In this document: positions 1-64,000 of the stretch, piece by piece
Layout: every line of letters begins with the position of its first letter
How positions within the stretch are numbered: position 1 is the stretch's first letter
IMG/VR virus record: IMGVR_UViG_3300029989_000006
Strand: one strand, 5' to 3'
Origin: a virus
DNA: 64,000 bases
Translations under genes and position numbers: made by a program
Notes under the pieces: generated by a model
What the model was told of the DNA's origin: nothing
The model's input: only the letters and a program-made list of their open reading frames with translations
Database searches by the model: none

Positions 1-3000
1 ATCAGGTATTATCTAATACTTTTGGAGATTCTCTATATCCAGTAAAGTTTTTAAAGATTGAAAATGATAGACTATTTAAATCATACTCTGTAAGGGTGTG
101 ATCTCTATTACTTTTAACAACATTATTAATCTTATTATTCATTAAAGGAATAATTGATGAAATCTCACCTTGAAATGAGTTAATAAAATCAGAAACTGTT
201 TCTTTAAAATCTCTATATATAACAGTACTGTGTGTATCAGTTTCTTTGATACGAATTGGATCACCTATTTTTATATAAACAATATCATAATCTGGTCCAA
301 TTTTAATTTCTGAATTTTCTGGTTTCTTATATAATTTTTCTCCTGAATTAGATAATCTTGTCTTTTCAATATAAGATTTTCCATCCTTTACTTTTGGTAC
401 AAGATCAAAACTGTTAACTGGCTCAACAATACCTGTTAATTCTTTAACAAATTTCACAAATACTGGATTTTGTCCACTTTTAAGATTTAAAACCAGGTCA
501 AAGGTTTTTGTTGGATTAACAACAGTGATATTCTCACCTTTATTAGTAGTTAAACTATTATGTATATCTACTACATTAAATTCCTTCTCTAATTTATTTC
601 TAAAATATTTTGATCCTAATTTGTTTATCTCTACAATTGATGCTCCATCATTATCAAATACTGTTTTGTATATATTTGGCAATATTAGTTCATTAGGTTT
701 AAAAACATAATTTTGAACATCAACTAATTTTGGTAATCAGAAATCTAAAACATCATTATTGATCTTTTTTAAATCATCACCATTTTCAGCTTCTGTTCCA
801 AAATATGCATTAAAATCAGTATGCTCACTAACAAATGGTAAAAGTTTAGAACTATTTAAAAATTCTAAGTTTCGTTCAGTCCATTTATCAAGTATATGAT
901 TAGCTTCTTTAAAGTTATCAACAGCTTCTTTATTGTTAGGAACTATTGTTAAATTAAATGCCTTTAAGAAATTTTGTAAGATAATAAAATCTTTATTATC
1001 TGGTAAAATATTCTCTCCTGCTTTATATCTAGATAATAAGAATTTTAATTTAATAGAATCCGTATCAAATAAATTATAACTTCTAAGTTCTGTAGATATT
1101 GTAGTTTCTGTATTTACAACAACCTGTATTGGAGTTATAATATCAAAAGTTATTTCTGAAGGTTTTAAATCTCTTGGAATATTTATAATTTTTTCACAAG
1201 GTTCATTATTTGAATACATCTCTTTAAAGTCCTGATAAAGTTTTGGGGAAGATAAATTATGTCTTATTCCTTTAATTTCAACTATTTCTCCAGGATTAAT
1301 TTTGCCAACTATTGTTTTAATTGGTTTTAATTTTTTATCCAAATATTCTTTTACAATCTCCTCGCTATTTTTACCTATAATTCCTCTTTCAACTGAATCC
1401 TGCATTGCTTCTTTTATAATATCTTCTTGCTTTAAAATATTTCCTTCTGCATCTTCAAATAATTGAATGATTTTGTGTGATGGATTTAAAATAGCACCTA
1501 ATCCTGAATAATACCTTGTAATAAATTCAGAATTTAATCTTCCAATCATATGTTGAACAAATTTACCAAAGAAATGTTGATTACTAAATGGTAACATATC
1601 TCCACTTCCAAAACTTTCACTAATGATTTTAGATAAATCATTTGTTTGACTATTATTTAAATCTTTTGCAAATTCTTTTGATAAATTTAAATAAAAATCA
1701 TTTAAATTTTTATCATCAAGTGAATCTAATGTTTTTAAATATGGAGAAGCTGCTTCTTTAATAATCTGAGCAAGATTTTGATAAACTTCATTTGCAATCT
1801 GAGAAGTCATTGGAGACTGAGCTAATGTAGAAATTAACTGTGTAATTTCTTTGATTTTAGAAGCATCAGCTGTGTGATTTGCATCCAACTGTGGACCCAT
1901 ATATTTATGAGAAACAGTTGTATAGTTTAATGGAGTATTATCAATTCAATGAGTAGATGGATTTATATTTGTAGCTCCTGCTTTAATTGCTGAAAGATTT
2001 GACATAATATGGATTAATCTATTTTTTAAAACATAATTACCTTCTTCATTATATGAAGTAATAATGTTAAATAATAAATCATTAGATGATTCATCTAGAT
2101 TAAATTTACTATCAGTAGAATATTCTCCACCAAAAACAGTTCATAAGTCATAAAGTGTGTTAATTTTGGTAGGATTATATTCAATGCTCTCAAATTTTTG
2201 TAAAATATTATTATATTTTAATAATTCTAGAGATAATACATTATTTTCTATTTTAAGTTTAGAAATTTTGAAATAACTTCCATCTTTTCAGTAATATTGA
2301 TTTAGCCCATCTTTTACAAATAAATTTATATTAATAGGTAATCCTAAAGATTTTTCTTGAAGATTTTTAAAAGCAATTGATGAATATTTTGAATTTCTAA
2401 TTTTATCATTAGTTAATACGGTTTCTGCATCTTTTTTAATCATTATTCCATAAGGAGTTAAGAAAGTACCAAATTGTTTCTTTGTACCTTTATATCCTTT
2501 TCCTGGATAAGATTCTTCAACCATTTTGGCATATAAATATGAAATTACAGATGATCCATCATGAATATCTTGTTTATGACTTGTTTTAGCCATATTATAT
2601 AATTCATCCTGTAAATCACTGATTGTTGCATGATTAATGTTATTTGGAACACCAGTTACTTTATTATGTACTGGTAGTTCAATAACCGCTGTAGCAACAA
2701 CGTTTCTTTTACCCATATTAGCAATTCTTCAATGTGCCTCATTTTCAAAGTTCTTACTAAATTTATCATAATCTGTAGATGCATAATCTTCTTGTAATGC
2801 TATACCTTTAGTTTTATGCATATACTCACCTTTTAAGGTTAAATAATGATACTCTTGTTTAAATAAGTTAGTTGCTAATAACCATCTTTTAAGTATTGGA
2901 TTAACATTTCCCTTACTATCATAGAAAGCATGCACATTTTCTTCTTCGTTATCTACAACAAAGCTCTTATTATAATTTTCTGAATTTATTCCTAAACTTT

Positions 3001-5713
3001 GTAATAAATTAGTAATTACCTCTGGATCTGCATCAGAATTTTTTGTTCTTTTTGTAGAGTTAGATAATTGATCAAGTTCTTCAGCAGAAAATAGTTCATT
3101 CTTACCTTCATCTTGTAACTTAGTTATTGCATTTTCAAATTGTTTATTTATAAATTTATTAAAGTTTCCTTTATTTGAAAATATTTTATAGTAATCTCAT
3201 ATATTTTGATTTATTGCAATACGTTTACCATAGAATGTATAATGTCTTTCAAGTTGAAAATTTACATCAGGATTTTTAAGTCTTGCCTGTCTTATTACTT
3301 CTAAAAATGCATCAGATTTACCCTCGAATTGTTTTAGATATTCATTAATTTTAGTTAAATTCTCAGCAATAGGACTTGTTAAATTTAATTCTAATCCCAA
3401 ATACTTATATTGTTTAATTATTTCATGAAGATTGTCCGTGAAGAAATTTAATGATTGAGTTCTTACTAAATCTTGTAAAGCTTCTTCTGATAATACATTT
3501 TGACCAGATCTATTTCCTATAATACTTTTATTATCATAAGAAGCATTTAATCCAAATAATTTTGATAATATACTATTCTTATCAGAATAATTACCAACAA
3601 TTACTGGAAATACTTCTGATTCTGCTTCTGGTCTAGTAAATGGATTCACAAAACCATAAAAGAAATCCGATATAAAGTTTTCTAATACACTAAAAGAAAA
3701 TGCTGACTTACTTTGACCTTTATTAACTAATTCAAGTTTTATACCAGTTCCTTTTAAAATAGAATTATTAGCTAAAAGACTTTTATATGTAATGTTACCT
3801 GTTTCTTTCTTTTCAAAGTCAAATCGTTCTTTTAATGTAACAATATCATTGTTAAATAACGTAGGTGTTTTGAATGAAGGAATTTTCTCTCCAGTATATG
3901 TTGAAATAACTGTGATTGGAGTTAAAACATAATTATCCAAGAATACATCTAAAATATCCTGTATTTTAGAGTTTAATTCAGTAATTACCTTACTCTCAGA
4001 CTGAACATTTTCTCTATCATCATCATTAACACTTTTTTCATTCTCTGCAATTCTTCCTAATAAATCATTATTATTAATTGCATCTAAATAATCCAATATT
4101 TTACCTTCAACACTAGAATTATTAGTAGTTCATTGTTTTATTAATTCCTCAGCCGAAAATGATTTAATACTAATTCCTAAAGTTCTTTGAATAAATTTTA
4201 CCAAGTCAGAAGATGTACTAGTTAATTTTTTTATTCTTTCCAAAGATTTTGCTCTATCTTTTCCAAAAATAAATGTTTCTGGAGAATTTAAGAGATTTTT
4301 TAGATGAGTATACACACTTACTTGTAATGCTATCTTCTCTGCATTATGTGAGTATAATTCTTTTACATCCATTTGACTGGAGTTACCATTGAAAGTATTG
4401 TAATAAGCCCCATAGCAGTTATTTAACACTTGTGTTAATAATTCTGTTACAGGTTGAGTTTTGGTCTCCTTTTTAGCTATTTCATTTTTAAAAATACTTA
4501 AGGATTGAATAATATCAAATTTTGGTCTGAAAATTAAAAATTTCTTATTATCAAGTCCAAGAAATCCTTGTTTTTTAGCTTGACTTACCTTTTTTATGTA
4601 TCATTCATACATATTAATAGGATCCTCATTAAAAGGTTTTCACGTTGGGTCATTAAAAAGTTCTATTGAATTTTCTAATTCAAATACATGCATTGTTGCA
4701 GCTAAACTATATAAATGCTTTGTTTCTAGAAATTGACCAGTAGGATTTCCTCAATGATCATAATGTGGTATAATAGCAATAGTATTCTTTGTTAAGTCAT
4801 CTGATAAAGTTTCTGCTGCTTCAGACATATGTTCATCTTCTGCCCAATACTCAGTTTCAAATCCTTTAGTAGTTGCAGTATATTTAATACCCTGAATTGG
4901 ATCTTCAAATGTATTGAATTCAGAAAAATTAACTTTAATCTGATTTCTGTATCTTGTAAATAATATATTGTCAAAGTTAACTAACATAATAGCTGCATTA
5001 TACGCATCTAATTTTGTTCTTAAAGCTCCATTTGAAATACTTCCTTGTAAATTTGGAATCTCTTTACCACTAGGTAATATTACTAAATCTTCATCAGAAG
5101 CAATTACATCTTGAAACTTACTAATAACGGGTTGATATAATGTATAATTAATTACACCTTTTTTATTATAAATATTTCCAATAAATTTATCTTTTTGAAA
5201 ATATAAATGCCCATTTTCTAAATTACCTCCTGTATATAAATATCTAACAATTCTCTCAAACAATCTATTCTTTAGATTCTTTAAACTTTGATTTAATTTT
5301 ACTGGATCATTAATAAATTCTGAACTATCTTTATCACCAAGTTTAGTAGCCCTCATAATTAATGCATTTGAACTTTCTAAAAAGTATTTTTCAGCAATAT
5401 GAAGTGTATGAAATAAATCAGAAACTATTGGAGAGTTAAATAAACAATCAATATTATTAATTGGTCTGTTTTTATTAATTCTATTAATAGTTACAGCAGG
5501 TTCTAAAATTTCACTTAACTGAATTCCATAATCTGTAATTATAGAATTAAAAGTACTCAGTGATTGCTCACTAAGTACTTCTTGTGCTTCCATAACATTT
5601 GATACAGTTACCCCATGTTTATTAAATATGTCTAGAATTTCTTGTTCAGTTTCTATTTTACGTTTAACTAAATCCTTAATAATCTTCTGTTGTTTTTCTA
5701 TAGTACATGCCAT
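1..5713 (-). CDS. Giant virion-associated RNA polymerase (crAss-like), N-terminal ~1,900 aa; continues beyond window start; code 4
   Basis: ORF fragments starting at 5713, 4429, 4096, 2935, 2716, 1900 and 682 share one frame and break at TGA. Motifs KRNVVATA, HDGSSVIS and GPQLDANH resemble crAss vRNAP segments, and the gene lies after the large cargo genes. The catalytic DxDxD motif is not in the window. Confidence 0.7.
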
Positions 5714-5728
5714 AAATTTGTTCTTTTA

Positions 5729-8700
5729 TTAACACTCAAAGAAATCTTCAAGTGATTCATTATTTTTATATTTTCCAAAATCAATTTGTAATTTATCTAA
5801 AACATAATTCATTAAATTAGATTCTATTCCAACATCATGTTTTGGTGCTAGAAACTCATTCACTTTTATTACACTCAAGTCTTTAATATGATTTAAAAAC
5901 TCTGATAAAGTTAAACTTTCAGATCCATCTATACTTGGGAAAACTTTAGTTTTCCATTTCTTTAATAATTCTTCAAATAAAGTATTATCATCTGCATTAT
6001 CAGATTCTTTAACATCACTTAATTTGTCTTTAAATATACTAACTAATTTCTGAACTTCTGATAAATCATTATATCCAGGAATTGGAGTTAATATTTCACC
6101 TATTTGAGCAATTGCTACTTCCTTTGTAATTGGCAAAATAGGTTTAACAACTTGTTGCATTTCAGTAAGTAATGCATCAGTTTTCTCCTCAGTTTTCTTA
6201 ATTATAGTTTCTGGTTTTATAACACTACTTTTTGTAGAAAGATCAATTAATAATCTTGGACCTTCTGGCATAATTGTAGTATATACATTATCAAAAACTA
6301 ATGGACTTTCAACTCTTTCATATTTTTCAGGACCAGTTGAACCTTTTGCACTGACAATTGGTACATTAAAAAATATACTTCCATCCTGTGCTTTGTCAGA
6401 TTCTTTTGCTTCTCAAACTGAAAAGATTTTTCCAAGAGTACTATTAATCTCTTTATAACGACCTCTAATTTCAGGTAAATACTTTTCATTAGAAGCAATT
6501 ATTGCAGATTTTCTATATAACTCAAATATATTTCAGAAGTTTCTATACCATTGTGTATTAGTACTTCTAACCAATTTTAACAGTTCATCTCTTAATAATT
6601 TTCTGTCTAATGGCATATGTTTACTTTGAAAATCTTCAACTGTTTTTAGAAGTGTTTCAATTACTAATCTTAATTTACTATCTTTTTCATTAGTAATAAG
6701 AGAAATAATATCCTTTTTCATAACATCTTTAAAGCTGTCTGTGTAAGCTTTTATAAACTCAGTTGATTCATCTTCACTAACCTTGCCTTGTTTAAAAAGT
6801 TTTATATATAGTTCAGAATTTTCTGTTGCAATTTCTATTAATTTATCTAATACTTGACTACCAGAAAACAAACTATCTCTAAGAGTTTCTGCTTGTTTTT
6901 GTGTATTAGAATTAGTTAATTTATCAATTAATACTTCATCAATTACAATTTGTTTAATCTCTTTTATATATCTTCTTCTACTTTTTAACAGTATTAATTG
7001 TACTTGTTTTGGATCCTCTATGAAAGTAACTGCAGCATATGGTTTTCCTCTAAACTTTTTATATAATGATTCTAATCCTAAAATTTTCTTGCCTGGATTA
7101 TATGGATCATCAACATCTTCATCCTTTCTTGGCTCTCCAAAATTGAATTTTTCTATTTCTTCAATAAATTTAGCTTTATTAGTAGAAAATAATTCATAAT
7201 GAATTTCATTAGTAAATACTCCTCTGTTATAAAAACTAATTCCAGGAATTTTCGAAATTTCTGTTAAAGTTAATCTTTTTAATTTATTATAATTTATATC
7301 AGCACCTTGAGTAGTTATTCTTGTTGGACTGATAATAGATATATCTTCAAATTTAACTTCAACCTCAGATTTTGCAGAGGTTAATAACTTTTCATAAGTT
7401 TTAATTGAATTAGAATCTTTTCCAAAAACTGCAGCAACAGTATCTAATGCACCAAAAGTAGCTAAATGTATGTAATAATCATTATTTGGAGAAATATTAA
7501 CCTTTAAATATAAATTTACATGGTTATCATCATTCTTCAGATGTTTACTAGAATTATCAACCATACCTTTTGCAAAAGGAGCATTAGCTAATTCATCGTA
7601 TTTTGTATTGATTAATACTAACTTAGTAGAATAATGATTCGGGATATATGCTTCAGTATTTGTAACTAATCTCATAATTTCATTATTAGCAGGTAATTTA
7701 CCTTGCAAATTTCAGAAACTATATTTTAAACTTACCAAAGAAGAAGTTAATTTATCAAACTCATCTTTTGATATTACTTTCTGATTTTCACCTAAGCCAA
7801 ATATAAAAGATAATCCAGAATTTAAATTAGTTCTATCATTCTTTTCTAATAATACTTTATCACCATCTACAATAGTAAACTTAACATTAATATCATTATA
7901 AAATGTATGAAGCATAAACTTATTATCATCTGGTTTTGTTTTTAATTTATTATTTAAAACAACTTGTGGTTGGGGCACAACATGATTTACTTCATCATCT
8001 GGCTTACCAGATATAGAAACTTCAGGCGATATTTCATCAGCTTCTTCAATTACAGCATCCTTTTTGAATTTAAAATTATCATCAACTAATGAAAAATTTG
8101 GATCTAATAATTTTGTTAGTTTCTCAATTCTTTTTAATTTAGTTTCTTTAACTAAATCCTCATTTATTGGTGTAATAAAATTAGGAAAATCTTCTGCTGT
8201 TGAAATTAAATTCAATGTAGTAGAATCCAATGTATTATTAATTGACTCATCATTTATTATAATAGATGCAGATTTTGATCTTGACATATATGTGTAAAGA
8301 TTTCTTAATGCACCTAAAATATGATTACTTTTTATTTGTGAAGTTTTAAAGATAAAATAATTAACTTCTGATCCCTGAATATTATCTTGAGTAAATAATT
8401 TCACATTATCCATGGAAATATTTGCTTTAGTTAATTGTTCTTGTATATTTGGATTTAATGTTCCAGAATCAGTTAAAATTCCTATAACTGATTTTGGATT
8501 TTCCTTAATAATGTTAACTAATGCAGTTAACACTTTAGTTGGAATTATTTTATCAGTTGTAATTAAATCACCACATAAAGTTTTATCATCTAGATAATAT
8601 TTCAATAAAATTCCTTTATCAATAAATCCCATAATCTTACTAGAATCTACTCTATAATCATTAAAGTGTTTAATACTTTTACGAACCAAGGAAGAAACAT

Positions 8701-11700
8701 AATCATTATCTTCTCTTTTCTGTGAATTTTCGGCTCTAACAACTAAATTTATAAAGGGTGTAAAAATTCCAGAAACCCTGTCAACATTAAAACTTGCTCC
8801 AAAGAATTTTGCACCATTTTGTGATTGATCTCCAGCTCCTACAATTTTAATTAATTTTCCCTCAGCTCAGGCTTTCTTAGCAATTTCATTAATTACTCCT
8901 AATTCTAAAGCAGTGAAATGTGTTACTTCATCAATAAATAATAAATCTGGAAGATTTGTAACAGATTCTTTAATAGTAATTTTATCTGCATTTAATATGA
9001 TGGAATTACCACTTTGAACAGTTACATATTGAGATTTGTCTTTATTACTATTTATATCATTAATTATTTCACTAATTCCTAGTTTATCAAATAATGTACT
9101 TTTATTATACTTATTTATTGTAAATTGTTTTGTATCTATACCTTCTAAAACATTTGTTTCTAATAAATCAGCTTGATCTAATTTTGGTCCAGCCAACCAA
9201 ATAGTTAAATTAGGATTATTATTCATCAGGAATGTAATAAGTGATTTAAAAATAACACTTGTTTTTCCTGTTCCTGCATTTCCTAATACATATGAAATAA
9301 AATCCGTTGTAACTAAATCTGGATCAGTAGTTAATTTTACAATTGCTGAGAATAATTCAGGATTTACTGTTGAAGCATATAAGATTTCAGCTGCTAATTC
9401 TTGAGAATAGAATGGGACTTTGTTAAATCCTTCCATCTTTGCTTGTGCAAGAAACTTATTATTAACATCCTTTGGATTTAACACCATTGTAGAAGCCAGA
9501 ATTCAAACAAAATCTGTTCTACTTAGTTCTTTTACATCTTTAGTAATTTCGTCAGTACCATCAATATTATAAATTGAATCAATATTATTTTTAAATAATA
9601 AATCATTATCCGTTAAAATCTGCGTAAATAATTGAATTAATTCTGTATTATTTAAATTTAAATCTTTTACGTACTGATAAATTGCTGATCTTATGTTTAA
9701 TAACTGTCCTTCTTTATCATCTAGATTTGTTAACAAATCTGTAAGATCTGGAAGTGTAGGTTTTTCTTTAAAAATAACTGGTTTACGAAGAATTTCTTTT
9801 AATTCTTTTATAACCAAATTAGATGTAGCTGTTCTTGTAAGTTCAGATTCATTATATATTTTTCCTGAGTTTGATTTAGATAATTCTTTTAATGTCTCCA
9901 ATTTAACTTTAATTCTGGCCAAATCTTTAAGCATTAATGCTGCAATATCAGATGGAACTGTTTTTAAACTTGTTGTTGGTGAAGTGATTTTATTTCTTTC
10001 TAAAAATTTCTGTCTTGTAACAATAAATCCAGATGGATGTTCAAAATCAACTTCTGTTAAACTTGTTCCTTCTACAACACTTTCTAATAATGAAATCATA
10101 TCAATCGCATTACTTATTTGTGTTGTTCTTATACCTTCTATCAGATAATTTGAGATATTAGATGTTTGAAATAATGAAAGTTCTTCATTTTTTAAGATAT
10201 CAAAAATTGACAATTTTTTAATACCTGATGAGGTTAGCAAAGGTACAATTTTTTCTGAAAGAAAATCATAGATAGAGTTTGAAATGAACTGATTTTTATT
10301 ATCAGTGATTTCTTTTAATTCTGTTAATGTATTAAAATAATCTTTATTAGTATTTTTAAAATTTTTGAAATCATGTAAAATTCCTAATAAATCTCCAACA
10401 GAATCTAATAGTTCTATATGATCTAATGAAATATATTTAGGTAAATTATATTTCTGTAAAACAGTTTCCAAATCCTCTGTATCAGAACTTAATTCATTTT
10501 GTATTTTTTCTAAATCTCCCAGAATTTTATCAGAATTTTCAATTAAATCTAATAATTCAACATTAGTTAATTGAAGTTCTTTAAAATAATTTGCTTTTAT
10601 ATAAGATAATTTAGTATCTAATCTTTGTTCTATTAGTATTACTAATTCTCTATCTAAATTTTTAGATTGTTTAATCTCTTTAACAATTTCTTCTAATCCA
10701 TAGTCATTGATTTGAAAGAATTGTGGAGTTTTTACAGCGAATTCTAATTTATTTTTAAGAGTCTGATATTTATTTAGTTTATTTTTAATTGAATTAAAAT
10801 AATCAAGAAATGATTCTAATATACTTGTTAGATTAAATATATCATCATTATTAATTAACTCTTTTATATCATTATTTTTATAATAATTATTAAATAATGT
10901 AATAACTGAAAGAAGGGCTTCATATTTCTCTGTATTTGATAAATCATTTACTGACTTACCTAAAACTTTTGCCTTGTTAGCATATAAATCTTTAATAGAG
11001 GAAACATTTGTTGAGATATTTGGTGTATTTGTTAGAAAATCAATATCTGCATCAGTTAACTGTAAATCAGCTTGTTCTGTTTTTAAATTTAAATTATTTG
11101 TTATAATTTGATTTTGTGCAGTTTCTGTTTGTTCATAAGGCATCAAATTTACTTTTAATTTCTTATCATCCAATTCTTTCATCTGTTTTTCTATGTCAAC
11201 TTTCTGAATTGAATCTGCAGAATCTAATTGAGTAATTAATTGATTAATTTGTTGATCTATTTGTTGATCATATTCTACTACCTTTGCATTAAAAGTATTT
11301 AATAATACATCATAATCAATAGCTTCTGATGGTAAATATGAGGCAATTGTACTGATAAAATTGTCAATAAATTCCTTCTTAGTTGTTCCACTTTCTGCAT
11401 TAACAACTTGATTTAATTCTGCTTCTGTTAATTTCTTCCCAGTTTCATAATTAATCAGAACATCATGGTCTATTACTTTTTTAGCAACATTAGTTTTTAT
11501 AACATCTCAACTAACAATCTTTTTACCAATTTTTTGTTCAATGTTATTTACAGTCGCTCTGAATTGCTCCAGATTAGCTTCACGATGTTCAGGATCCATA
11601 TTCCACAATTCTAATTGACGAGAAATATCTAATAATCCTTTAAAAGTTTTGTCCCTTTCATAACTATATCCATTAGTCATATATTCAACTAGTTTTGGAT

Positions 11701-14428: not shown

Positions 14429-14437
14429 AATTTAAAA

Positions 14438-42941: not shown

Positions 42942-42942
42942 G

Positions 42943-45183: not shown

Positions 45184-45231
45184 CAAAAATAAGTAAATTC
45201 TTTAAAATAAAATTCAATATTTTAAAAAATT
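45184..45231 (-). promoter_or_regulatory. Bacteroidota-type promoter (-7 TATTTTTG) with upstream imperfect inverted repeat
   Basis: TAnnTTTG at 45191-45184 in a 200-bp intergenic gap; 14-bp IR with one mismatch (45196-45209 / 45218-45231). Confidence 0.45.
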
Positions 45232-45297
45232 ATTAATAAATAAGTATATCTTAATTAGACTTTATTATTTTTAATCTTAAAATATGCATAAATTTAT

Positions 45298-46383: not shown

Positions 46384-46385
46384 AA

Positions 46386-47915: not shown

Positions 47916-47919
47916 TTTC

Positions 47920-48882
47920 TTATTTATTTAAGTCTAAAAACTCAATTAACATTTTTTTATAATCTCTTTTTCATTGGGGTTCTAATTGAATATCTCCAAC
48001 AATAATCTCTTTATTTAATCTCTGTTGTTCAATAAACTTTTGATGTTCTATTAATACATTTAACTTTGATTGACTAGACATATGATAATTACCATCCCCT
48101 CAATTATAAATTCAACTAACTTCTTCATTAATAGGATTAGCTCTTACTATATTTTTGGATTCTTTTAATATTTTAGAAGTAAAAGTCATATCATATCCAA
48201 AATTTTCTTTGGCATGTTTTCCAACTTTTTCTCAAATATTTTTACTATAAACTATTCCAGAATTACCTAACGAACATAATTTCTCAATTTGATGTTTCAT
48301 CATAAAGATTCCATTATTTCAATACATTAGATCAGTTCCTTCTATGAAATATTTATAAATATTATCTAAATGATTAGGTAAAGCTATATCATCATCATCT
48401 CATACTACAATTATTTCTCCAGAACACTGTTTTACTGCAAAATTCTCTTTATCCCCAATAGTATCAAAAGTTTTATTCATATTAAAAATTTTAATCTGTG
48501 GATGTTTAAAGAATAATTTTTGTTGTGGATAATCATTTACAATTATTAATTCTTTTGGCCCAATGTATTCTTGTTGTAAAAAAGATTGAATAGATTCTTC
48601 TAAAGATTCTACTCTACCATAAGTAATACATTTACATGAAATTAATGGTAAAGTATTATCTAATTCTTTAAATAATGATAAATTATCATTTTCAGTAAGT
48701 TCTAATTTTTTTATTCCATTTCCAAAAGAGTATTCTAATTCAAGATATTTAATTTGATTTGGCAATGGATCTCCAAATAGATAATTTCCAATTTTTATAT
48801 TTATACTATCTGTATAAATATGTTGGGTAAGAATGTCTTTAACATCCTTACCTCCATATTTTGCCTTTAATATCTTTAACAT
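47920..48882 (-). CDS. GT2 family glycosyltransferase with N-terminal SUEL/DUF3395-like lectin domain (320 aa); code 4
   Basis: ILKAKYG...FGDPLPNQIKYLELEY lectin-like module; ISCKCITYGR...SFLQQEY...ELIIVND...V-W-DDDD. Confidence 0.85.
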
Positions 48883-48885
48883 ATA

Positions 48886-50859: not shown

Positions 50860-50871
50860 TAATATTTATAT

Positions 50872-52713
50872 TTAAATTTCTATTATTGTAACAGTATTAT
50901 TTGCTTGTAAGTATTGAATATCACCATCTGGTTGTCCCTCATTACAGGTCATTAATGCTGAGGGAACTGTTAAAGTAATTGTATTTTCTACTATACCATT
51001 AAATACACCATTAAATTCAACTGTTATACCCAAATTTGTACATAATGGAATATTAATTAGTATAAGATTTGCACAATCATAAAAACAATTATTTCCAATT
51101 GTAGTTAAATTAGGAAAATCTAAACTTATTAAACTTCCACAATTATAAAAACATCATTCTCCAGTAATAGTTAAATTAGGTAAAGTTACAGTATTAAGAT
51201 AAATGCATCCACTATAATTGCGTGAACCAAAACAATTATTTCCAGCAATAATAATACATCCAGCATTATCCTCAAATCCTCTTATGTTAATACCATAACC
51301 ACCTACATCATCAAATAAATTATCTTTTAATATAATATTAGATCCTCCATAAAGATTAACTACATTATCAATAACATTAACAGAAGTAAATGGAGTTCCA
51401 TTAGTAGGTAAATCAAAAAATGTATTTCAATCACTAACATTAGACGAACTACCAGAAATTAATAAATCTGCATAAGTAATATTAATAAGTGTAAGTTTTA
51501 ATGATTGTTCTTCAACAGTTGTTGTTATAATTGTAGTAGTTGTAGTAGTTTCTTCTATAGTAGTTATAGTATCTATATATCTACTTCTTGCCCCACTTGT
51601 TAAATCATGTCATACTGTATTATCTTCAATTATAGGAATAATGGAATGATCTCTATATTGTGTTTCTTTTAAATCTTCAGCCATTCACCATTGTGAATCT
51701 ATTAATACACAATTATATCTACGTGAATCATTTCCTACATAAATTGCATGATTATCTAAAATTTCAATAGGAGTATCTACAATTAATCGGATTGAAAAAC
51801 CACTATTTATTGAATAATTATGTCCTTTATTTAAAGAATTTGAATAGTCATTTAGGAAAATGTATGTTGGAATTCCATAATATAAAGTTGATATTCAAAA
51901 TCATGTTGTATAACCCTTATAATAACACTCACCTGAATTATCTCTATATCCTCCTGGTTTTGCAGTAAATCCAAAATCATTTGTACTTCCTGAATCAGTA
52001 ATTCAGTTTTCAGTACCTATTTCTTTTAATTTTCCCCCTGCAATTCCAATATCTCCTAAAAATGTTATTAAGGTATTAATCTCATTATTTGTTGGCACAT
52101 GTGCATTTGAATTGGAAATATTTCTTTCATCTAATATAGTATAGCCATTATATAAATATATATTATCATATTCATCTATAGTTGTTGATAAAGTAGTTCC
52201 TATTGTGGTTTCAGTACTAGTAGGTTCTGTTGTAGTTATAGTAGATTCTGTTGTAACTTCAGTTGTTGTTTCTTCAATAGTAGTCTCTTCAATAGTAGTC
52301 TCTTCTGTTGTAGGTATTTCTAAATATTGACATATTCAGGTTCTAAATATAGATATAAAAGAATTATGTGGAACTTTATATTGACACACAAATTCATTAA
52401 TATTTGTATTATAAAATATGTATAAAATATGTTGACAAATATATTTATTAAATCTTGACGTGTATGATATTATTGGAATAGTAGTTGTTGTAGGAATTAT
52501 TATATTTAATGCTTGACAAACAGAATTTACTCATAAAGAATCATAAGATAATTTTGAAACATGTGTAGTAGTTGTATCAACAATAATCTGACATAAATAC
52601 TCATTAAATTGAGAATAATAAGAAACTAATTCTTCTATTTGTTCACAACTAAAATCAGTAAATTTTACACAATATCTTTTAAAATCCAGTACTGGTGGAC
52701 AAATATTACTCAT
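50872..52713 (-). CDS. Mucin-like Thr-rich protein with permuted FISUMP domain and C-terminal BspA-like LRR (613 aa); code 4
   Basis: Thr/Glu-rich tract, then AGGKLKEIGTEN-W...GFTAKPGGYR...GFSIRLI...QW-W-MAEDL, then LPNLTITGE-W-CFYNC / FPNLTTIGNNCFYDC repeats. Confidence 0.8.
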
Positions 52714-56129: not shown

Positions 56130-58188
56130 TTCTTTCTTCTTCAGTTTTAGGTATTTTACCTCAATGTTTATAACCATTTCTATCAGTAAATCATCCTATA
56201 TCACTAAATGTTTTACCCTTTGGTTCTCTTTCTTCTGGTTTTTTAAAAGATAATTCCTCATCTCCTAATTCAGCCATTCCCATAGCTGCCACAATATCAA
56301 AGTCTTTCTTTTTCTCATCAGAATAGTTTAATAATTGTTCAACCATTTCTCTAAATGCAATTGTATGAGAATAATCTAAACAAAAATCATATATCAATTC
56401 TCTATAGTGTGTAATTACTTTTAAAGTTGCAGGAGTTCCTCTCATTTGTGAATTACCTTTAGATACATCTGGCATAGTCGCACGTGGACGTTTCATTAAT
56501 AATTCTATCATTTTTTTATCTCTAAAATAAGTAGAGATAGCTGTTCTAGTTGATTCTAAAACTGCTTGGCAACCATAATAAGTTAATAATTTTGCTGCAT
56601 TATCATAAGCTTCTCTAGGATCTCTGGGTCTATCTTTATATATTGCAACATACATTGGTTCAGATATTCCAAATACTCTTTTCTTAATTACTATACAGAA
56701 ATCAGAAACAGTTTTATCATCTTGATTAGATGTATCATCAGTTCCTATATCAATAGAGTCAATTCCTCCAACATATAAATTCTTATAGTCTAGTCCTGCT
56801 TCAGATAATAACGGATGTTCAATTATTAAAATCTTTCCATCACCTTCTTCTCTTCCTTCTCTTCATTTTACTCCAGTGGGATTATCTTTATCATCTCTCT
56901 GCCAAACTAAAGATCCAAAATGTGGTTTTGGAACATCTTTATAAATATCAATCCTTGCCATTTGCTCTGCAAGTTCTTCTCTTGGAAACATATTATCACC
57001 TTGTTGGATTAATGCTTCCTCAATTGTAAAACAGAACTCTGCTTTAAAGATTAATAAACTTTTAGGGTTTGCAACCTTTGTTTTTCTAATCTCATTTCAA
57101 TATTCTTCTGCTGCATCTCTATTACATCATCCTCTTTTGTCTACTAAACTTGCAACCATTCTAGTTGCAGGAATAAACATTCCAGTTAAAATATATTTTC
57201 TATCAGGAGTATAATTATGTCTAACCTTTAAAATATTATAAACATCTGGTTTAAGAATTAAATCTCTCATTCCAGCTACAGCAGCTCCTTTATCTCCACC
57301 TGTACCCCAAGCAATTCGTATTCCAATTCTATCTCCTCCAAGTACAGTTACTAACGCTTCTGCTTGTAAGAATTTTTCAAGTAATATTTTATCAGCTCCG
57401 GCTTCTTCAAATAAAATTCTTTCAGTTCTATCTCCTCTGATTTTCTCAGCTGAGTCTACAACTAATCCTTCTATTTCAGACATATGCCCAGTTTCTCCAC
57501 CATCTCTTAATTTCTTAGAAGCACGTTTATGCATGGCAGAATTCTGAACCATTCTTACACGTTTAAATGCTCCTTCAGTTTCAGATGATAACCAATCTAA
57601 TTGGAACCAGGCTTTAGCTAATAATGGTTTTAATAATTTCTCAGAGAATGCAGATGCAACAACTCTATAATTTGGTGTTGTAATAAAAGGTCTAACACAT
57701 AAACAAGCACCCATTTCGGAATAACCTAACGCACGTGCTTTAAGAAGTCCCACATCCTTTCTTAATATTTCACACATTTCAACATAATGAAAAAACTCAT
57801 ACTGAAATACTAAAAATCTAGGAAAAGCCATTGTTCTACCTGAACCAGCTTTTGCATCTTTATCAGAATCTTTTAAGTGGTAAAAATTTAATCAAAAATA
57901 ATTATCACCAGTGATTCTATATCCATTAATTTCATAACCTTCTTTACATCTTTTAAATTTTTCATCCCAAAAATCACGATAACTTTTAGTTCCAACTATA
58001 GTTTTACTATATCTTCCAGTTTTAATTTTTGTAATAGCATCAGGTCTAAATCAATCAGGATTAAAATCTAATCCTTTAGTATCATTAATAGGTCGATAAC
58101 CAGTTATTTCATATGATAATTCTGGATCAAAATACTCAATTTTCTGATCTATTGGTATATCTCACTTAACTGTAAATTCCTTAATCAT
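56074..58188 (-). CDS. terL: Terminase large subunit (704 aa); code 4
   Basis: YRITGDNYF-W-LNF, LKARALGYS (Walker A region), ILFEEAG, WGTGG, nuclease YVGGIDSID and DIVAAMG; about nine in-frame TGAs. Confidence 0.9.
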
Positions 58189-58756
58189 ATGTTCCTGCCT
58201 CCATATTTCCTCTTAATCCATTAGAAGGCTCAATCTCTTTCTTAACTTGTTGTTCTAACTCATTAAGTGTTACAATTAAATCTTTACACCCTTTTATTTC
58301 CGCAATTAAATCTTTAGATTTAAAAATTGGTTTTCCAGTTAATGGATCTCTTTCATTTAAATCTATATGATTTAAATAATATATCTGAGACTCTACAGCA
58401 TTCATTGCACTCTTTAATAATCTTAAAGGAATACTAGAATTCTGCAACTCATCATATTTTCTGCAAGCACTTCTAAATTCTGGATCATTGAATTGTTCAT
58501 TTGTTAATCCAGAATCTTGTAATGCACCTTCATGTCTATCTTGTTCAGGTATACTAAAATATGGACTTTCCCAATCAAAGAATAAATAAATATATTGAAA
58601 CTCTTTAAATGCTCTTTCTTTATTTTTACCTATTTTATCAGATTTTGTTTTGTTTCTTGTTAATTCCATTAATATAGCAAACTCTTTTATTGCTAAAATA
58701 CCAATATCATTGAGTGCTACACATTCATTATCCTTATCATATTGAAAAAATTTCAT
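58181..58756 (-). CDS. Probable terminase small subunit
   Basis: Directly upstream of and overlapping TerL; helical 191-aa protein ending LRG.....YD. Confidence 0.5.
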   Translation of the reverse strand: MKFFQYDKDNECVALNDIGILAIKEFAILMELTRNKTKSDKIGKNKERAFKEFQYIYLFFDWESPYFSIPEQDRHEGALQDSGLTNEQFNDPEFRSACRKYDELQNSSIPLRLLKSAMNAVESQIYYLNHIDLNERDPLTGKPIFKSKDLIAEIKGCKDLIVTLNELEQQVKKEIEPSNGLRGNMEAGTYD

Positions 58757-58759
58757 ACA

Positions 58760-60031
58760 CTATTTTTTAGGTTTTACTTTAAAATTAGGTTTTGCTTTCT
58801 TTACTTTTTCTATAACTTGTTTATTTGAAATATCAGGTTTCTTTGTTTCAAAATTAGGAACAAAACTTGGCTTTACTTTAGGTTTTACTTGTACTTGTTT
58901 AATAAAGTTTCCACCTTTCTTCATAAGATGTGGATTTGTTGTTTTTCCAAAATTGGGTACCATTGTTTTTCCAACAAACTCAATAGGTCTTGTTTGAGTA
59001 ATACCTGCTATTTCTTTTAAAGGAGTTTCTTGTTTTCTTGATGCAATATTTTTCATTCTTGCAATAAAATCTAAATTCTGTTCAGCAGTTCCTTTATAAT
59101 TCTCTATTCCTAAAGTTTTTGCTAAAAGTTTTCTATCTACCATTCCATTATTTAATCCAATAGATTTTAAATAATCAACTATTGATGCATTAGGATTTGC
59201 TATACCTGTTGTGGCTGTTGTATCTGTTATAATTGGTTTTACACCAGGTTTACTAACTATACCTTCAGGAACATTAATTGATCCATTTGTATTTTTAAAT
59301 ATATTATTTAAAATAGATGGATCTGTTCCATAAGAAATAACTTGTGTACCTGATTCATTTTCTTTTAATTTATTTAAAATTTCATTTGATCTAAATTGTG
59401 CTAGTGGGTCAGTCTGTAATCCTATATCTATTTTTGTATTAACTATATTTGCACCTTGAGTAGAAACTCTAGTATCATTTACTCTATTATTAAAAGCTTC
59501 TACTATCGGGGTAAGTAGATTAAGATTAGAATTTATAACTGCACCAGGTCTTCCATGATATATAGGTTTATCTAACCATTCAACAACCTTGGGATTCATT
59601 ACAGCTTGTCCACCTGCTAATTTTTGAATTAATCCACCAGATTCTTTTTTATCAACTTTTCCACCCTTACAATTACAAGCACATTTGGAAATCATTGTTC
59701 CCCCTTCAGCTTTAACTTCTATCATATTGCAACCACAACCACATTTTTTAGGTGTTGCTTTTCCTTTTTTTAACTTTAATAAATACCCTCCCTTTTTAGC
59801 AGAGACTACTTCGTTATCTTCCTCATTAATTACCTTATCAACAGTTCCATCTGGATCTTCTTCGTAATCAGAAAATAATTGTTGTGGATCCTTTTTTAGA
59901 ATCAATTTTTTAATATGATCCTGAAGTTCTGGTTTCATATCTCCATTTTCGTCTAGGATATCTTCTTCTGTATAACCCCTTTTCTTTAAATAATTTATAG
60001 CGAAATTACTCACCAATTCTTCTTGATTCAT
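58760..60031 (-). CDS. Putative virion cargo protein with DUF3597-like segment
   Basis: Repeated K.GG motifs, a Cys cluster, and SIVDYLKSIG...RKLLAKTLGIENYKGTAEQN. Confidence 0.5.
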   Translation of the reverse strand: MNQEELVSNFAINYLKKRGYTEEDILDENGDMKPELQDHIKKLILKKDPQQLFSDYEEDPDGTVDKVINEEDNEVVSAKKGGYLLKLKKGKATPKKCGCGCNMIEVKAEGGTMISKCACNCKGGKVDKKESGGLIQKLAGGQAVMNPKVVEWLDKPIYHGRPGAVINSNLNLLTPIVEAFNNRVNDTRVSTQGANIVNTKIDIGLQTDPLAQFRSNEILNKLKENESGTQVISYGTDPSILNNIFKNTNGSINVPEGIVSKPGVKPIITDTTATTGIANPNASIVDYLKSIGLNNGMVDRKLLAKTLGIENYKGTAEQNLDFIARMKNIASRKQETPLKEIAGITQTRPIEFVGKTMVPNFGKTTNPHLMKKGGNFIKQVQVKPKVKPSFVPNFETKKPDISNKQVIEKVKKAKPNFKVKPKK

Positions 60032-60066
60032 GTTTTTATAATTTTATTAAATAATCTTTTTAGTAA

Positions 60067-60288
60067 CTATAATTTTTGCAAATCCTTAGTATTATAAATT
60101 GCGTCTTGTAATTCTCCTGTGGTTGTAAACCATCTACATAAGATTCCTTGAAAGAAATCACCATTAATATTTCCAGTTCTAATTGTCTTTGTTACTTTTT
60201 TAACAACAATCATGATTGGTTTGTTAGGTAACTTTTGACGTAAAGTAACCAAATCGCCAGGTAGAAAATATATTTTTTCATTATCCAT
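60067..60288 (-). CDS. YodC/DUF2158 family protein
   Basis: FLPGDLVTLR...PIMIV...CRWF pattern. Confidence 0.7.
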   Translation of the reverse strand: MDNEKIYFLPGDLVTLRQKLPNKPIMIVVKKVTKTIRTGNINGDFFQGILCRWFTTTGELQDAIYNTKDLQKL

Positions 60289-60820
60289 TTTTAATTTTAT
60301 TAAATCTTTCTGTTAATCCTTCATTTAATGCACACAATATTTGTGGTTCACTTGTTTGAATCCAACCTAATGATAGAAAAGGTACTGGATATACAGTTCT
60401 TGTATCATAAAACACATCATCATTAGTTTTTAAATAATGACATTCTGGCCCAATCTCAATTACTTTAGCGCAACCTACAAAAGTTTTTAACGTATCTTTC
60501 TCTCCAGAATCTGGATTATTAAAAGATCCATTATACTCAACAATAATTCCTCCTTTACTCGCAAGTTTCCTATAAGGATTTTCAGGATAAGGTAATAATA
60601 TTACTTTATTACCTAAAGGAATTAATTCAAGTTTTTCTAATTTCTTATCTAATTCTTCTTGTTTTTGTAAAGCAAGTTCACGATATAGTTTACCTGCTTC
60701 TTCTAAATCTTTTTCAGCTTTAATTTCTTCCACTTGTTTTTTTAATGGACTTTCTGGAATAATTAATTTGTTTTTACCTGAAAAGTAAAATTTTGATTCT
60801 TGTTCTTCTTTTAAACTCAT
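60281..60820 (-). CDS. GroES-like co-chaperonin domain protein
   Basis: LIPLGNKVIL...KGGIIV...AKVIEIGP...DDVFY. Confidence 0.7.
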   Translation of the reverse strand: MSLKEEQESKFYFSGKNKLIIPESPLKKQVEEIKAEKDLEEAGKLYRELALQKQEELDKKLEKLELIPLGNKVILLPYPENPYRKLASKGGIIVEYNGSFNNPDSGEKDTLKTFVGCAKVIEIGPECHYLKTNDDVFYDTRTVYPVPFLSLGWIQTSEPQILCALNEGLTERFNKIKNG

Positions 60821-60855
60821 TTTCTAATTTTCTTATTAACATTTACATTTATCTT

Positions 60856-61131
60856 CTACCATTTTTTAGCTGGGCAGTGAGCTTCTGGTACTCTTGTTTT
60901 TGAACCTAATACACATCCACATCCTCTATAAAATCCTATTTTACCTACTTCTGAAGTTTCTCCAGTAATAGGATTTAGATATAGACTTTCATTACAAAGT
61001 TCTCCAAAAATACTATGTATTTTTAATAATGGACAGCCATTTCTACAAACTGCAATTCTTGTTTTAAATAATGTCTCTTGTAAATTCAAAGCATTATTTA
61101 CAGATCCCTCAATTATTTGACTAAATGACAT
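60856..61131 (-). CDS. Small Cys-rich (zinc-binding) protein
   Basis: RIAVCRNGCP...GCGC..GSKTR....CPAKKW; likely start MSFSQ at 61131. Confidence 0.6.
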   Translation of the reverse strand: MSFSQIIEGSVNNALNLQETLFKTRIAVCRNGCPLLKIHSIFGELCNESLYLNPITGETSEVGKIGFYRGCGCVLGSKTRVPEAHCPAKKW

Positions 61132-61547
61132 AATATAATTCCTCCTATAAATCCAGTACCTATAAAATAGGGCCACTTTCTTATTTTATTTTTATATTTA
61201 ATTATATCTTTATTTAATTGAATATTTACATCAGATAATAATTTAGTTTCTTTATCTTTTGTATTAATTATAATATCTTTATTATTATTAACAATATTAT
61301 AATCTTCTGTTGTTTTCTTTAAAGATTTAATTATCTTTTCATCTAAGTTATATAAGTTCTCATATTCTTCTAATGTTGTAATATAAGTTCTTAAATTTCT
61401 AATTTCTTGTTTCTTAAATTGATAAGAAACTATTGTATCGTTAGTAATACTATCTTGATATATTACTCACTTTTGTGAGGACTGAGTCCATCCACATAGC
61501 GTGGTCAATAGCACCAGCATTATAGATAGTGTTAATTTTCTTATCAT
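61113..61547 (-). CDS. Putative outer-membrane/unimolecular spanin-like protein (144 aa); code 4
   Basis: Signal-like N-terminus MIRKLTLSIMLVLLTTLC, TGA at codon 27, coiled coil, and C-terminal TM PYFIGTGFIGGIILC; overlaps the 3' end of the upstream gene; not in the ORF track. Confidence 0.6.
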
Positions 61548-61821
61548 AATGATTTATTATTTTTTCCTTCACATGTTCCATTGAATCTACTTGTATTTCT
61601 AATCTTTTTATATTATTCATAAAATAAGTATTCTCTTTATTTAATGAATCTACTTTTAATTCATATTTTTCTATTATTGCATCTATTTTTGCTTCACTTT
61701 TCTTTGTGTAGTAAATAGATATAGTAGATATTCCTAGCCATAAAAATGCAACTATTAAAATACTTGCTAAGATTATTCCTACTTTAGAATATAATTTTTT
61801 CTCTTGATCGCTTAAAATCAT
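61450..61821 (-). CDS. Putative inner-membrane spanin
   Basis: N-terminal TM helix followed by a coiled coil; overlapped by the downstream lipoprotein-like gene. Confidence 0.55.
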   Translation of the reverse strand: MILSDQEKKLYSKVGIILASILIVAFLWLGISTISIYYTKKSEAKIDAIIEKYELKVDSLNKENTYFMNNIKRLEIQVDSMEHVKEKIINHYDKKINTIYNAGAIDHAMWMDSVLTKVSNISR

Positions 61822-62713
61822 CGTGCTCTAATTGTTTTTTATAATATGCTAACATTCTTTCAACATCGTTTTTAATATATTCACATTCATAAGTCTCACA
61901 ATTATCGTCGTGATCATAATGAATAAGCATTAATAATTTAATATTAAATTCAGGATTAATTTTTTGAATCATCCAAGCATATGTACTTAATTGTAAAGTA
62001 TAATGCCAGAAATTACAATCCTGAATATTATTTAATGGATACATTAAGGTTGAACTCTTTTTCATCTTTCTATCAAAATAAGACTTGGTCTCAATTTTTT
62101 TATTAGTCTTAAAATCAAGAATATATACATCCTTATCATCAACAATAACTAAGTCTGCTTGCCCAGCTAATCTAAGCTTTCCATCGTCAGATATTCTTGA
62201 TAATAAAATCTCAGGATAAATTCCTTTTTCTCCTATTTTTAATTTATTAGATGTATCAGGATTAAACTTTCCACCTAATTTTAAATGTTGAAATGATTCC
62301 GTTTTTCCACCTAATAATTCCAACTCTCTTGCTTTATGTATTGCTGTTCCTCTAACGCAAGATTCATCTCTTTTTCTAGCCCATTCAGTTAATAATTCTG
62401 TTTTTGCAAAATCAAACTGATCTTTTGGAACATTGAAAAAAGTTAAATAAGTATCATTGAATTTCTTCGTATCTAATAAAGCATTCTTAACTTCTTTAAA
62501 TCTAGTTTCTCCAACTAATCCTTCTAATGTTTTATACGCAGACCAAAATTCTTCATCAAATGTAGCAAATTTATGTATAAGTGTAGTAACTGAAATACAA
62601 TCCTGATTACTATCTTTTGTCCAATATTTATGTAAATCATCATTATACTTAACTGCTTGATCTTCTTTATCAACAATTAATTTTGTATAATCAATTAAAT
62701 TATTTTTATTCAT
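61784..62713 (-). CDS. PD-(D/E)XK (RecB/Cas4-like) exonuclease
   Basis: SVTT, RGTAIH, AGQADLV, ILDFKT and YTLQLSTYA motifs. Confidence 0.85.
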   Translation of the reverse strand: MNKNNLIDYTKLIVDKEDQAVKYNDDLHKYWTKDSNQDCISVTTLIHKFATFDEEFWSAYKTLEGLVGETRFKEVKNALLDTKKFNDTYLTFFNVPKDQFDFAKTELLTEWARKRDESCVRGTAIHKARELELLGGKTESFQHLKLGGKFNPDTSNKLKIGEKGIYPEILLSRISDDGKLRLAGQADLVIVDDKDVYILDFKTNKKIETKSYFDRKMKKSSTLMYPLNNIQDCNFWHYTLQLSTYAWMIQKINPEFNIKLLMLIHYDHDDNCETYECEYIKNDVERMLAYYKKQLEHDDFKRSREKIIF

Positions 62714-62740
62714 ATATCATTTTCATTTATTCCTATTATT

Positions 62741-63472
62741 CTAAAATGGTCATTTTAACCATTTCTTTTCATGTAATTTGTTATCTAAATTATCAAAGTT
62801 CCACATAGAACTTATAATTTGTGCAGCCTTGGCAACCTCATGTAAAGAATCTTTTTTACATAATATTTTTTCATGTATTGTAGTTGCAACTATAAATCCA
62901 ACTACTTCATCTACACCATGTATTGCATAAAATATGGCAGACTTAACATTATTAGGTTCCATAAATGCATATAATACTGGATATTCTTCTTTAACTTCCT
63001 TTAAATCTTCAATAAATATATATCCGTCTTTTTCTAATTGAGTTAAAAATTTAGCAATTAATGATAAATTTATTCTTTGATACTGTAAAGCCACTGGTGA
63101 AGTACCTGTTGAAGTAACCTCTGCTGCTGCAGAAGCAAACAAAAAAGGCAATCCTGCTAAGTTAGAAGTACCATTAGAATATTCAAATACTAAAGCTCTA
63201 TCTGCACAAGCATTTATTGCTACGTCTTGTAATAATACAATTACTTCTTCAGAAAATTGTTTTCTCAATCTATTACCCACTTTATGAGTTTCTTTTTCTA
63301 TTTGTACTCTTCTAGCAATCTTTTCATCTATAGCTTGGCCTGATGAACTTCAAGAAAAAATTATAAACCCTATTAAAGCTAAGGGTAATGCAGCTGCAAG
63401 TAAAAACAATATAACTGCCCAAATTCCTTCTTGTTGTAATAAATACATTAAAAATTTAACTAATGCCTCCAT
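62741..63472 (-). CDS. Membrane-anchored GAF-like protein, T4-type holin candidate (243 aa); code 4
   Basis: ATG at 63472, hydrophobic N-terminus, TGA at codon 41, then ADRALVFEYSNG...GLPF...VGFI; second TGA at 62750 and TAG at 62741. Confidence 0.55.
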
Positions 63473-63516
63473 TTATTTTTGGATTTTTAAAATTAACTAC
63501 TCTAAATTATTTTATG

Positions 63517-63573
63517 CAAAGTTATGAATAATTATCAGATAAAATTATAAATCTTTTAAAAATTTATAATTTT
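63517..63573 (-). promoter_or_regulatory. Bacteroidota-type promoter (-7 TAACTTTG) with upstream 12-bp inverted repeat
   Basis: TAACTTTG at 63524-63517, followed by CA; IR AAAATTATAAAT (63541-63552) / ATTTATAATTTT (63562-63573). Confidence 0.6.
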
Positions 63574-63610
63574 AAACTAAATATACTTTAAACATTAACA
63601 TTATCATATC

Positions 63611-63644
63611 AATAAAAATAGGAGACAATTATCTTGCCTCCTAT
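63611..63644 (-). terminator. Rho-independent terminator after phoH
   Basis: ATAGGAGGCAA-GATAA-TTGTCTCCTAT followed by TTTTATT. Confidence 0.75.
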
Positions 63645-63647
63645 GAT

Positions 63648-64000
63648 CTAAATTCCATTATCCCGAAGTAATGTAAGTATTTGTGGTATAAGAGGGTTTC
63701 TCACACAATCTTCATCAGCAAATTCTACTGTTCCAATAAGATTTGTTTCTTTAAAAATTTCAAACATAGTTGTTAGACATGAATCTTTAGGATTTTTCTT
63801 ATCTATTTGTTCTATATCTCCAAGGAAAATATATTTAGAATTTTCTCCTATACGAGTCATAATAGTTTTAAATGTATGATCTGTAATATTCTGTGATTCA
63901 TCTACAATAACTATAGAGTTGTCAATACTTAGTCCCCTAATAAATGCAATTGGTAATACTTCTACTACACCTTCTTTCATTAATTTTTTGCAAGTATCCT
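63648..64000 (-). CDS. phoH: PhoH family ATPase, C-terminal part
   Basis: LPIAFIRGLSIDNSIVIVDESQN...TRIGENSK..FLGDIEQID...VRNPLI; the frame is open to the window edge. Confidence 0.9.
   Translation of the reverse strand, partial: DTCKKLMKEGVVEVLPIAFIRGLSIDNSIVIVDESQNITDHTFKTIMTRIGENSKYIFLGDIEQIDKKNPKDSCLTTMFEIFKETNLIGTVEFADEDCVRNPLIPQILTLLRDNGI

Follow-up and report, generated by a model that had tools for sequence, protein, structure and literature searches.

The stretch considered here, positions 1-64,000 of IMG/VR virus record IMGVR_UViG_3300029989_000006 (64,000 nt, hereafter the window), very probably constitutes most of the late, or virion, arm of a circular crAss-like phage genome of 172,046 bp, from an uncultured phage, in which two genetic codes are in use. 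With similarly high confidence, the phage can be described as one whose early genes follow the standard code, whose late genes use TGA as a codon for tryptophan (Trp), and which supplies its own suppressor tRNA with the anticodon UCA, tRNA(UCA). TGA is read as Trp by the evidence of that tRNA and of conserved protein positions, and this use of TGA is split between the two arms of the genome; we infer the charging enzyme, the timing of the switch and a standard-code host.

All long open reading frames (ORFs) of the window lie on the minus strand, and G+C content is 25-32% in the window and 28.9% in the genome overall. When coding cover is taken as the share of this coding strand occupied by stop-to-stop ORFs of at least 100 amino acids (aa), it rises from 77.4% under table 11 to 97.5% once TGA counts as sense; treating TAG or TAA in this way, as controls, gives 78.1% and 86.1%, respectively. 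Reading TGA as Trp throughout (code 4) fuses the fragments into 44 complete genes and one that runs off the window, with the complete genes ending in TAA (33 genes) or TAG (11 genes). A preliminary description of the window had proposed that its core genes are broken at TGA only, rejoin in the same frame and end in TAA or TAG, and both the gain in coding density and the stop codons bear this out. In-frame TGA codons number 135 in the complete genes and 11 in the gene that runs off, approximately 146 in all, alongside 104 TGG codons in the window. Counting TGA and TGG together, recoded genes hold 1.23 Trp per 100 aa (0.29 from TGG alone), close to the 1.14 of TGA-free genes, with TGA making up about three quarters of the Trp codons in recoded genes. 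The idea that the TGA codons act as a gate, crowded near gene starts, was rejected, their positions being roughly uniform with a slight 3' excess. In addition, the base following TGA does not differ from that following TGG, and this together with the lack of a preference for gene starts argues that TGA acts as an ordinary Trp codon.

The residue encoded by TGA was examined in alignments to homologues with TGA masked as X, such that the query could not bias the outcome. For TerL, seven of the nine TGA columns are Trp-dominant among 120 homologues, as the preliminary description had predicted for such an alignment, and the remaining two are Tyr or Phe. Since code 4 may already have been applied in predicting the homologous proteins, the TerL codons were also read in the DNA of 12 relatives. 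Here, five of the nine columns carry TGG in at least one of seven relatives that are 63-97% identical, while the TerL genes of five distant relatives, which are TAG recoders and contain no TGA, have TGG at three of the nine. The alignment of a 305-aa protein (46386-47303) is more uniform, with all eight TGA columns Trp-dominant (0.61-0.99) among 150 cluster representatives of 31-49% identity, against a background Trp content of 2.3%. The lone TGA of a DUF192 protein (20914-20916) aligns to Trp in the solved bacterial proteins PDB 3PJY and 3M7A. Taken together, Trp dominates 16 of the 18 TGA columns tested, and Tyr or Phe the remaining two; none is dominated by Arg, by Cys or by Gly, the residue given in advance as an example of a different assignment. 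On these alignments, TGA is to be read as Trp in the late genes.

The preliminary description had also placed individual TGA codons at family-conserved Trp positions, and the coordinates it gave (50392-50394, 50098-50100, 20914-20916 and 48400-48402) are exact. The claim holds for DUF192, but fails for the glycosyltransferase family 2 (GT2) protein, where the TGA preceding DDDD (48400-48402) aligns to Gln in the matching solved GT2 structures. The codons at 50392-50394 and 50098-50100 sit in two RG[VI]C-x-STSQNPT motifs, and the portal TGA sites, when compared with crAss001 gp20, fall in poorly conserved columns.

Assembly or sequencing errors, or decaying pseudogenes, would also leave genes fragmented under table 11, yet fragmentation is the lone observation that such an explanation accounts for, and its probability is close to negligible. 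Breaks are confined to TGA codons, invariably keep the frame and fall at Trp columns, and the same sequence has been assembled independently in many samples. Each window protein checked by exact match occurs on 10-13 contigs of 50-200 kb from many samples, the source of the genome being JGI and ENA metagenomes. Exact protein matches also place the phage on two independent contigs of 172,155 and 172,173 bp, whose terminal overlaps of 109 and 127 bp imply the circle of 172,046 bp. This circle was rebuilt from overlapping loci to 99.2% with 0 conflicts, leaving a gap of 1,319 bp.

No tRNA is present within the 64-kb window, in agreement with the preliminary description, which had predicted that a suppressor tRNA(UCA) or a release-factor effector would be found elsewhere in the genome. 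A gene for such a tRNA lies 1.4 kb past the window end on the minus strand (locus L001, 7200-7273, corresponding to 65441-65514 in window numbering), with TGA-free genes around it and TerL 7 kb downstream. The Rfam tRNA model matches it over all 71 positions with a score of 56.2 bits, and its 74 nt fold as a standard cloverleaf that has an acceptor stem of 7 bp, a short variable loop and G73 as discriminator base. The rebuilt circle encodes 26 tRNAs, of which tRNA(UCA) is the sole suppressor and the sole one encoded by the minus strand; the plus arm carries the remaining 25, a tRNA-Trp(CCA) among them. An orthologous tRNA(UCA), 73% identical and in the same gene order, is present in a TGA-recoding relative with a TerL that is 67% identical, whereas more distant TAG-recoding relatives of 165-174 kb carry a tRNA(CUA) and 14-16 in-frame TAG codons in TerL. 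Thus, the suppressor follows the recoded codon.

As to the origin of the suppressor, recent duplication of the tRNA-Trp(CCA) gene of the phage was considered and rejected, the two being approximately 50% identical, and a blastn search of tRNA(UCA) against phages returned only a chance match of 25 nt. Because of this low identity, the assignment of tRNA(UCA) to Trp relies on G73 and on the protein alignments. G73 is consistent with the bacterial rules for Trp identity, and charging of tRNA(UCA) with Trp is a prediction.

Reading of TGA as some other residue, be it Gly (as in code 25 of Gracilibacteria and Absconditabacteria), Arg, Cys or selenocysteine, is very improbable, although several features of the tRNA point in that direction. 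ARAGORN labels tRNA(UCA) as 'SeC', a label that follows from the anticodon UCA alone; among the phage tRNAs, Arg(UCU) is closest to it, with 60% identity; and the tRNA(UCA) of phage Lera was scored as Trp or Arg by tRNAscan-SE (PMC12386605). Against this stand the Trp-dominant columns and the exchange of TGA and TGG between close relatives. For selenocysteine in particular, the length, acceptor stem and variable loop of tRNA(UCA) are not Sec-like, and the number of in-frame TGA codons in the window is far above any plausible number of selenoproteins.

The plus arm, which encodes replication, nucleotide metabolism and tRNAs, uses a different code. Here, 100 ORFs with a length of 60 aa or more are free of TGA and use TGG 231 times, and a further 22 have their first TGA within the last 12 codons and are read as ending in TGA, corresponding to 22 of about 143 ORFs, or approximately one in seven. 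For instance, one of these TGA ends is part of an ATGA in which the stop of one gene overlaps the start of the following one, and another lies 8 nt past the next ATG. Such TGA-ended ORFs imply that TGA is a working stop codon in this arm, and hence favour a standard-code host that possesses release factor 2. Late-arm genes, on the other hand, contain 217 internal TGA codons, and internal TGA is found in 29% of ORFs overall. The preliminary description had assigned code 4 to the genome as a whole, an assignment that stands for the late genes but not for the plus arm, nor for the 18 of the 45 window genes that lack TGA. The first-transcribed genes of the minus arm (approximately 69300 down to 58181 in window numbering) have almost no TGA, and recoding on this arm starts at TerL. 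The eight genes in 58181-62713 together hold 15 Trp codons, only one of which is TGA (in 61113-61547). The start of TerL overlaps by 8 nt (58181-58188) the stop of the preceding TGA-free 191-aa gene, placing the code boundary inside an apparent single transcription unit.

A simpler possibility would be that the phage follows a host whose native code already assigns TGA to Trp, without any switch of code. Mycoplasmatota, which use code 4, have a tRNA-Trp(UCA) and lack release factor 2. The phage resembles them in reading UGA as Trp through a UCA-anticodon tRNA, and both its low G+C content and the behaviour of TGA as an ordinary Trp codon, unbiased in position and in next base relative to TGG, would fit a host of this kind. 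The resemblance ends there, however, in that the phage recodes only part of its genes, carries its own tRNA(UCA), and has TGA stops in the same genome. In a code-4 host TGA should never be a stop, whereas 22 early-arm ORFs end in it and 100 do without it. In addition, the 29% of ORFs with internal TGA is within the 26-71% published for recoded phages of standard-code hosts, and far under the approximately 90% of code-25 phages, which do mirror a TGA-reading host (bioRxiv 10.1101/2021.08.26.457843). TerL relatives in the phage collection (29-45% identity) have, where a host is named, only Bacteroidota as hosts (Bacteroides, Flavobacterium or Azobacteroides). A native code-4 host is thus improbable, and a Bacteroidota host is likely, by kinship only, since every named host of the TerL relatives belongs to that phylum. 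The preliminary description had reached the same host from promoters, an argument that fails, as the Bacteroidota promoter motif TTTG-N17-21-TAnnTTTG has 4 matches in the window, as compared to 4.84 expected, with 0 on the coding strand.

Not all plus-strand genes adhere to the standard code. Internal TGA codons on this strand are concentrated in homing endonucleases (GIY-YIG, HNH_2, DUF723 and NUMOD-type), a PD-(D/E)XK gene and a lytic transglycosylase. For the homing endonucleases of the early arm, in-frame TGA codons suggest that full translation would take place only after the code switch. The recoded transglycosylase gene is antisense within the minus arm, and its product has no sequence match in PDB. 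A second protein with an SLT domain and an M15 peptidase, both encoded at the end of the plus arm, contain no TGA.

The mechanism proposed for the two-code phage is as follows. Genes for early functions and replication on the plus arm, together with those transcribed first on the minus arm, are written in the standard code with TGG as the sole Trp codon, while most virion genes from TerL on, the antisense transglycosylase and several homing endonucleases use TGA for most of their Trp. Once made, tRNA(UCA) would be charged with Trp, presumably by the tryptophanyl-tRNA synthetase (TrpRS) of the host, and the charged tRNA would out-compete release factor 2 at UGA. Recoded genes would then be fully translatable only after tRNA(UCA) appears, a timing that is likewise predicted.

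The TGA-free genes of the window include the major capsid gene and a block of four genes (38109-44031), made up of three tandem paralogues with LamG-type lectin domains and a 362-aa gene. At the 76% share of TGA among the Trp codons of its neighbours, the probability of zero TGA in this block is 4e-23. The lectins share 37-38% identity among themselves and have only a small number of homologues, all at 41% identity or less; their genes lie in the most G+C-rich stretch of the window (0.32). The lectin genes are absent from three relatives (G001-G003), one of which has a complete interval from capsid to TerL. It is possible that the block is a recent import from a standard-code phage, or that selection has acted against TGA. 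For the capsid, orthologues in relatives contain just one recoded stop each. A more far-reaching suggestion, tentative and rather unlikely, is that the choice of Trp codon is tuned gene by gene and not arm by arm, the basis for which is that the lectins have diverged to 37% identity and still use TGG only, within one co-directional late operon. If selection, as opposed to recent import from a standard-code phage, keeps the capsid and lectin genes TGA-free, these virion proteins would form a class whose translation must be independent of the suppressor or fully efficient, and the single late-strand tRNA(UCA) would then represent a dosing valve as opposed to a simple on-switch.

Several points weigh against a phage that switches from the standard code to TGA as Trp. 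Insertion of Trp at UGA is predicted from sequence, the early-late timing is read from gene content, and the likely host is taken from the kinship of TerL relatives. The TGA-free capsid and lectin genes in the late arm are a poor fit to a simple early/late rule, and the suppressor is just half identical to the phage's own tRNA-Trp(CCA). In addition, no release-factor or TrpRS domain is found in precomputed Pfam matches for the genes on approximately 99% of the genome, with the 1.3-kb gap being outside the rebuild.

Dual coding with suppressor tRNAs in crAss-like phages has already been published (PMC7886860, PMC12386605), and the genome is a new and divergent example of it; the preliminary description had noted that stop-codon reassignment is established in some crAss-like phages. 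Yutin et al. (2021, PMC7886860) described 243 crAss-like phages in which TAG has come to encode Gln or TGA to encode Trp, mainly in late genes and often with suppressor tRNAs, and a Zeta group of 145-192 kb in which adjacent branches use TAG, TGA or the standard code. The Zeta phage Lera encodes 26 tRNAs, including tRNA(UCA), and has TGA in TerL, muzzle and lysis genes (PMC12386605). Similarly, the phage described here has a genome of 172 kb, which falls within the Zeta size range, approximately 26 tRNAs with tRNA(UCA) among them, TGA as Trp in TerL, muzzle, and other structural and lysis-type genes, many homing endonucleases, and relatives that alternate between TAG and TGA recoding. It differs from Lera, which has both UCA and CUA suppressors, in having one suppressor, and from the Zeta examples in a TerL no more than 45% identical to the phage collection, and in a capsid gene and tandem lectin genes that are free of TGA.

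Borges et al. (bioRxiv 10.1101/2021.08.26.457843) proposed a switch from early genes in the standard code to recoded late and lysis genes, brought about with a suppressor tRNA, and noted recoded homing endonucleases within early genes. The genome follows this model in its standard-code replication genes and recoded structural genes, a suppressor tRNA among standard-code genes upstream of the recoded block, recoded homing endonucleases in early regions, and a low G+C content. Unlike the Jade phages of that study, there is no release factor 1 (RF1) or TrpRS 'code change module', and, unlike the model, the early arm shows no depletion of TGA stops, and one lytic transglycosylase is recoded while the plus-arm M15 peptidase and second SLT protein are not.

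Affiliation to crAss-like phages is evident from four hallmark proteins, TerL (phrog_6681), portal (phrog_6547 and PDB 7QOG), capsid (PF23898) and muzzle (PF25731). TerL is approximately 29% identical to that of named crAss-like phages and shows no more than 45% identity to any entry of the phage collection, against which a megablast search with 25 kb of DNA gave no match. The lineage is that of a divergent crAss-like phage that resembles the Zeta group, a placement that would depend on likeness to published features. Three relatives (L019, L020 and L026; IMG/VR contigs of 128-174 kb) have TerL genes (10001-12115) whose products are 41% identical and which contain 14-16 in-frame TAG codons, with a tRNA(CUA) nearby and an ORF cover that rises from approximately 0.3-0.4 to approximately 0.76 when TAG is read as sense. 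Such amber recoding indicates that the lineage holds both opal and amber recoders.

Table 1. Features of the window and associated loci. Coordinates are those of the window unless a locus is named.
Feature	Position	Strand	Remarks
Giant protein, 2952 aa (N-terminal 1904 aa in window)	2-5713	-	11 in-frame TGA in window, 21 in all
Three large putative virion or cargo-type proteins (1274, 623 and 2899 aa)	5729-20133	-	10, 5 and 10 in-frame TGA
DUF192 protein	20488-21081	-	PF02643, E 3.5e-22; single TGA in W-M-K/R-N/D-T motif
Muzzle, 1468 aa	22686-27092	-	PF25731 crAss_MUZ on identical gene product; 23 in-frame TGA, 1 TGG
Major capsid protein, 476 aa	34639-36069	-	PF23898 Crass_capsid, E 3.3e-12; 7 TGG, 0 TGA
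TGA-free island (three LamG-type lectin paralogues; 362-aa gene at 42943-44031)	38109-44031	-	36 TGG, 0 TGA
Heavily recoded block	44033-52713	-	Seven genes with in-frame TGA
305-aa protein (enzyme)	46386-47303	-	phrog_4417; 8 in-frame TGA
GT2 protein	47920-48882	-	6 in-frame TGA; TGA at 48400-48402 precedes DDDD
Portal, 741 aa	53651-55876	-	phrog_6547; crAss001 gp20 PDB 7QOG, E 7e-17; 4 in-frame TGA
TerL, 704 aa	56074-58188	-	phrog_6681, E 2.8e-62; 9 in-frame TGA, 5 TGG
Small and upstream (early or middle) genes	58181-63980	-	Nearly TGA-free; stops TAA or TAG
191-aa protein	58181-58756	-	Stop overlaps TerL start
423-aa protein	58760-60031	-	
Exonuclease	61784-62713	-	
243-aa gene	62741-63472	-	2 TGA, 3 TGG
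Lytic transglycosylase (SLT)	L007 3644-4621 (window 65976-66953)	+	Antisense in minus arm, adjoins suppressor tRNA; 6 TGA, 1 TGG
Homing-endonuclease-type genes (GIY-YIG, HNH_2, DUF723, NUMOD/I-HmuI-like)	L063 8193-8924; L070 10648-11118; L065 1731-2873; L066 8753-9745		Standard-code arm; 1-4 in-frame TGA each

The main genes of the window are listed in Table 1. The gene labels of the preliminary description are upheld for TerL, portal, muzzle, GT2, DUF192 and two Fib_succ_major proteins; its 'vRNAP' label is unconfirmed, the giant proteins having no match in PDB or PHROG. Within the heavily recoded block, in-frame TGA codons are distributed as nine in a FISUMP/LRR_5 gene, six each in the Fn3-like and GT2 genes, one in a methyltransferase gene, eight in the gene for the 305-aa phrog_4417 protein, four in a second FISUMP gene and three in the gene for a 354-aa protein. 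The N-terminus of the GT2 protein (residues 25-55; 48720-48810) resembles a repeat from a rhamnose-binding lectin (PDB 5H4S, E 3e-4), so that the gene may encode a lectin-glycosyltransferase fusion.

Outside the window, the 25 plus-arm tRNA genes (L068 654-15387, and L069/L070; ENA 60586-101550) are interleaved with small genes, including YqeY-like and Val_tRNA-synt_C-like ones, and a tRNA-like gene with a two-base anticodon call is found at L007 16018-16089. Genes for an OmpA-domain protein, an ABC-transporter permease (BPD_transp_1) and an ABC ATPase follow one another at L070 15094-18579, an unusual cargo for a phage, and elsewhere the genome encodes adenylosuccinate synthetase, ferritin, ClpP, RNR, Thy1 and DNA ligase. 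A 1045-aa homologue of TerL (P0114) contains an intein together with homing-endonuclease domains (PF05204, PF05203 and PF14528). Intein-bearing TerL proteins are also reported for Zeta-group crAss-like phages.

For annotation, the consequence is that two codes are needed, as table 11 breaks most virion genes, TerL, portal and muzzle included, while a blanket use of table 4 would add false tails to about 22 early genes. The map of recoded genes should be useful for studies of code switching in phages, and leaves the current picture of the phenomenon unchanged. Among crAss-like phages, the genome adds a well-resolved and nearly complete case of opal recoding, from a very divergent lineage, the sister lineage of which recodes amber.

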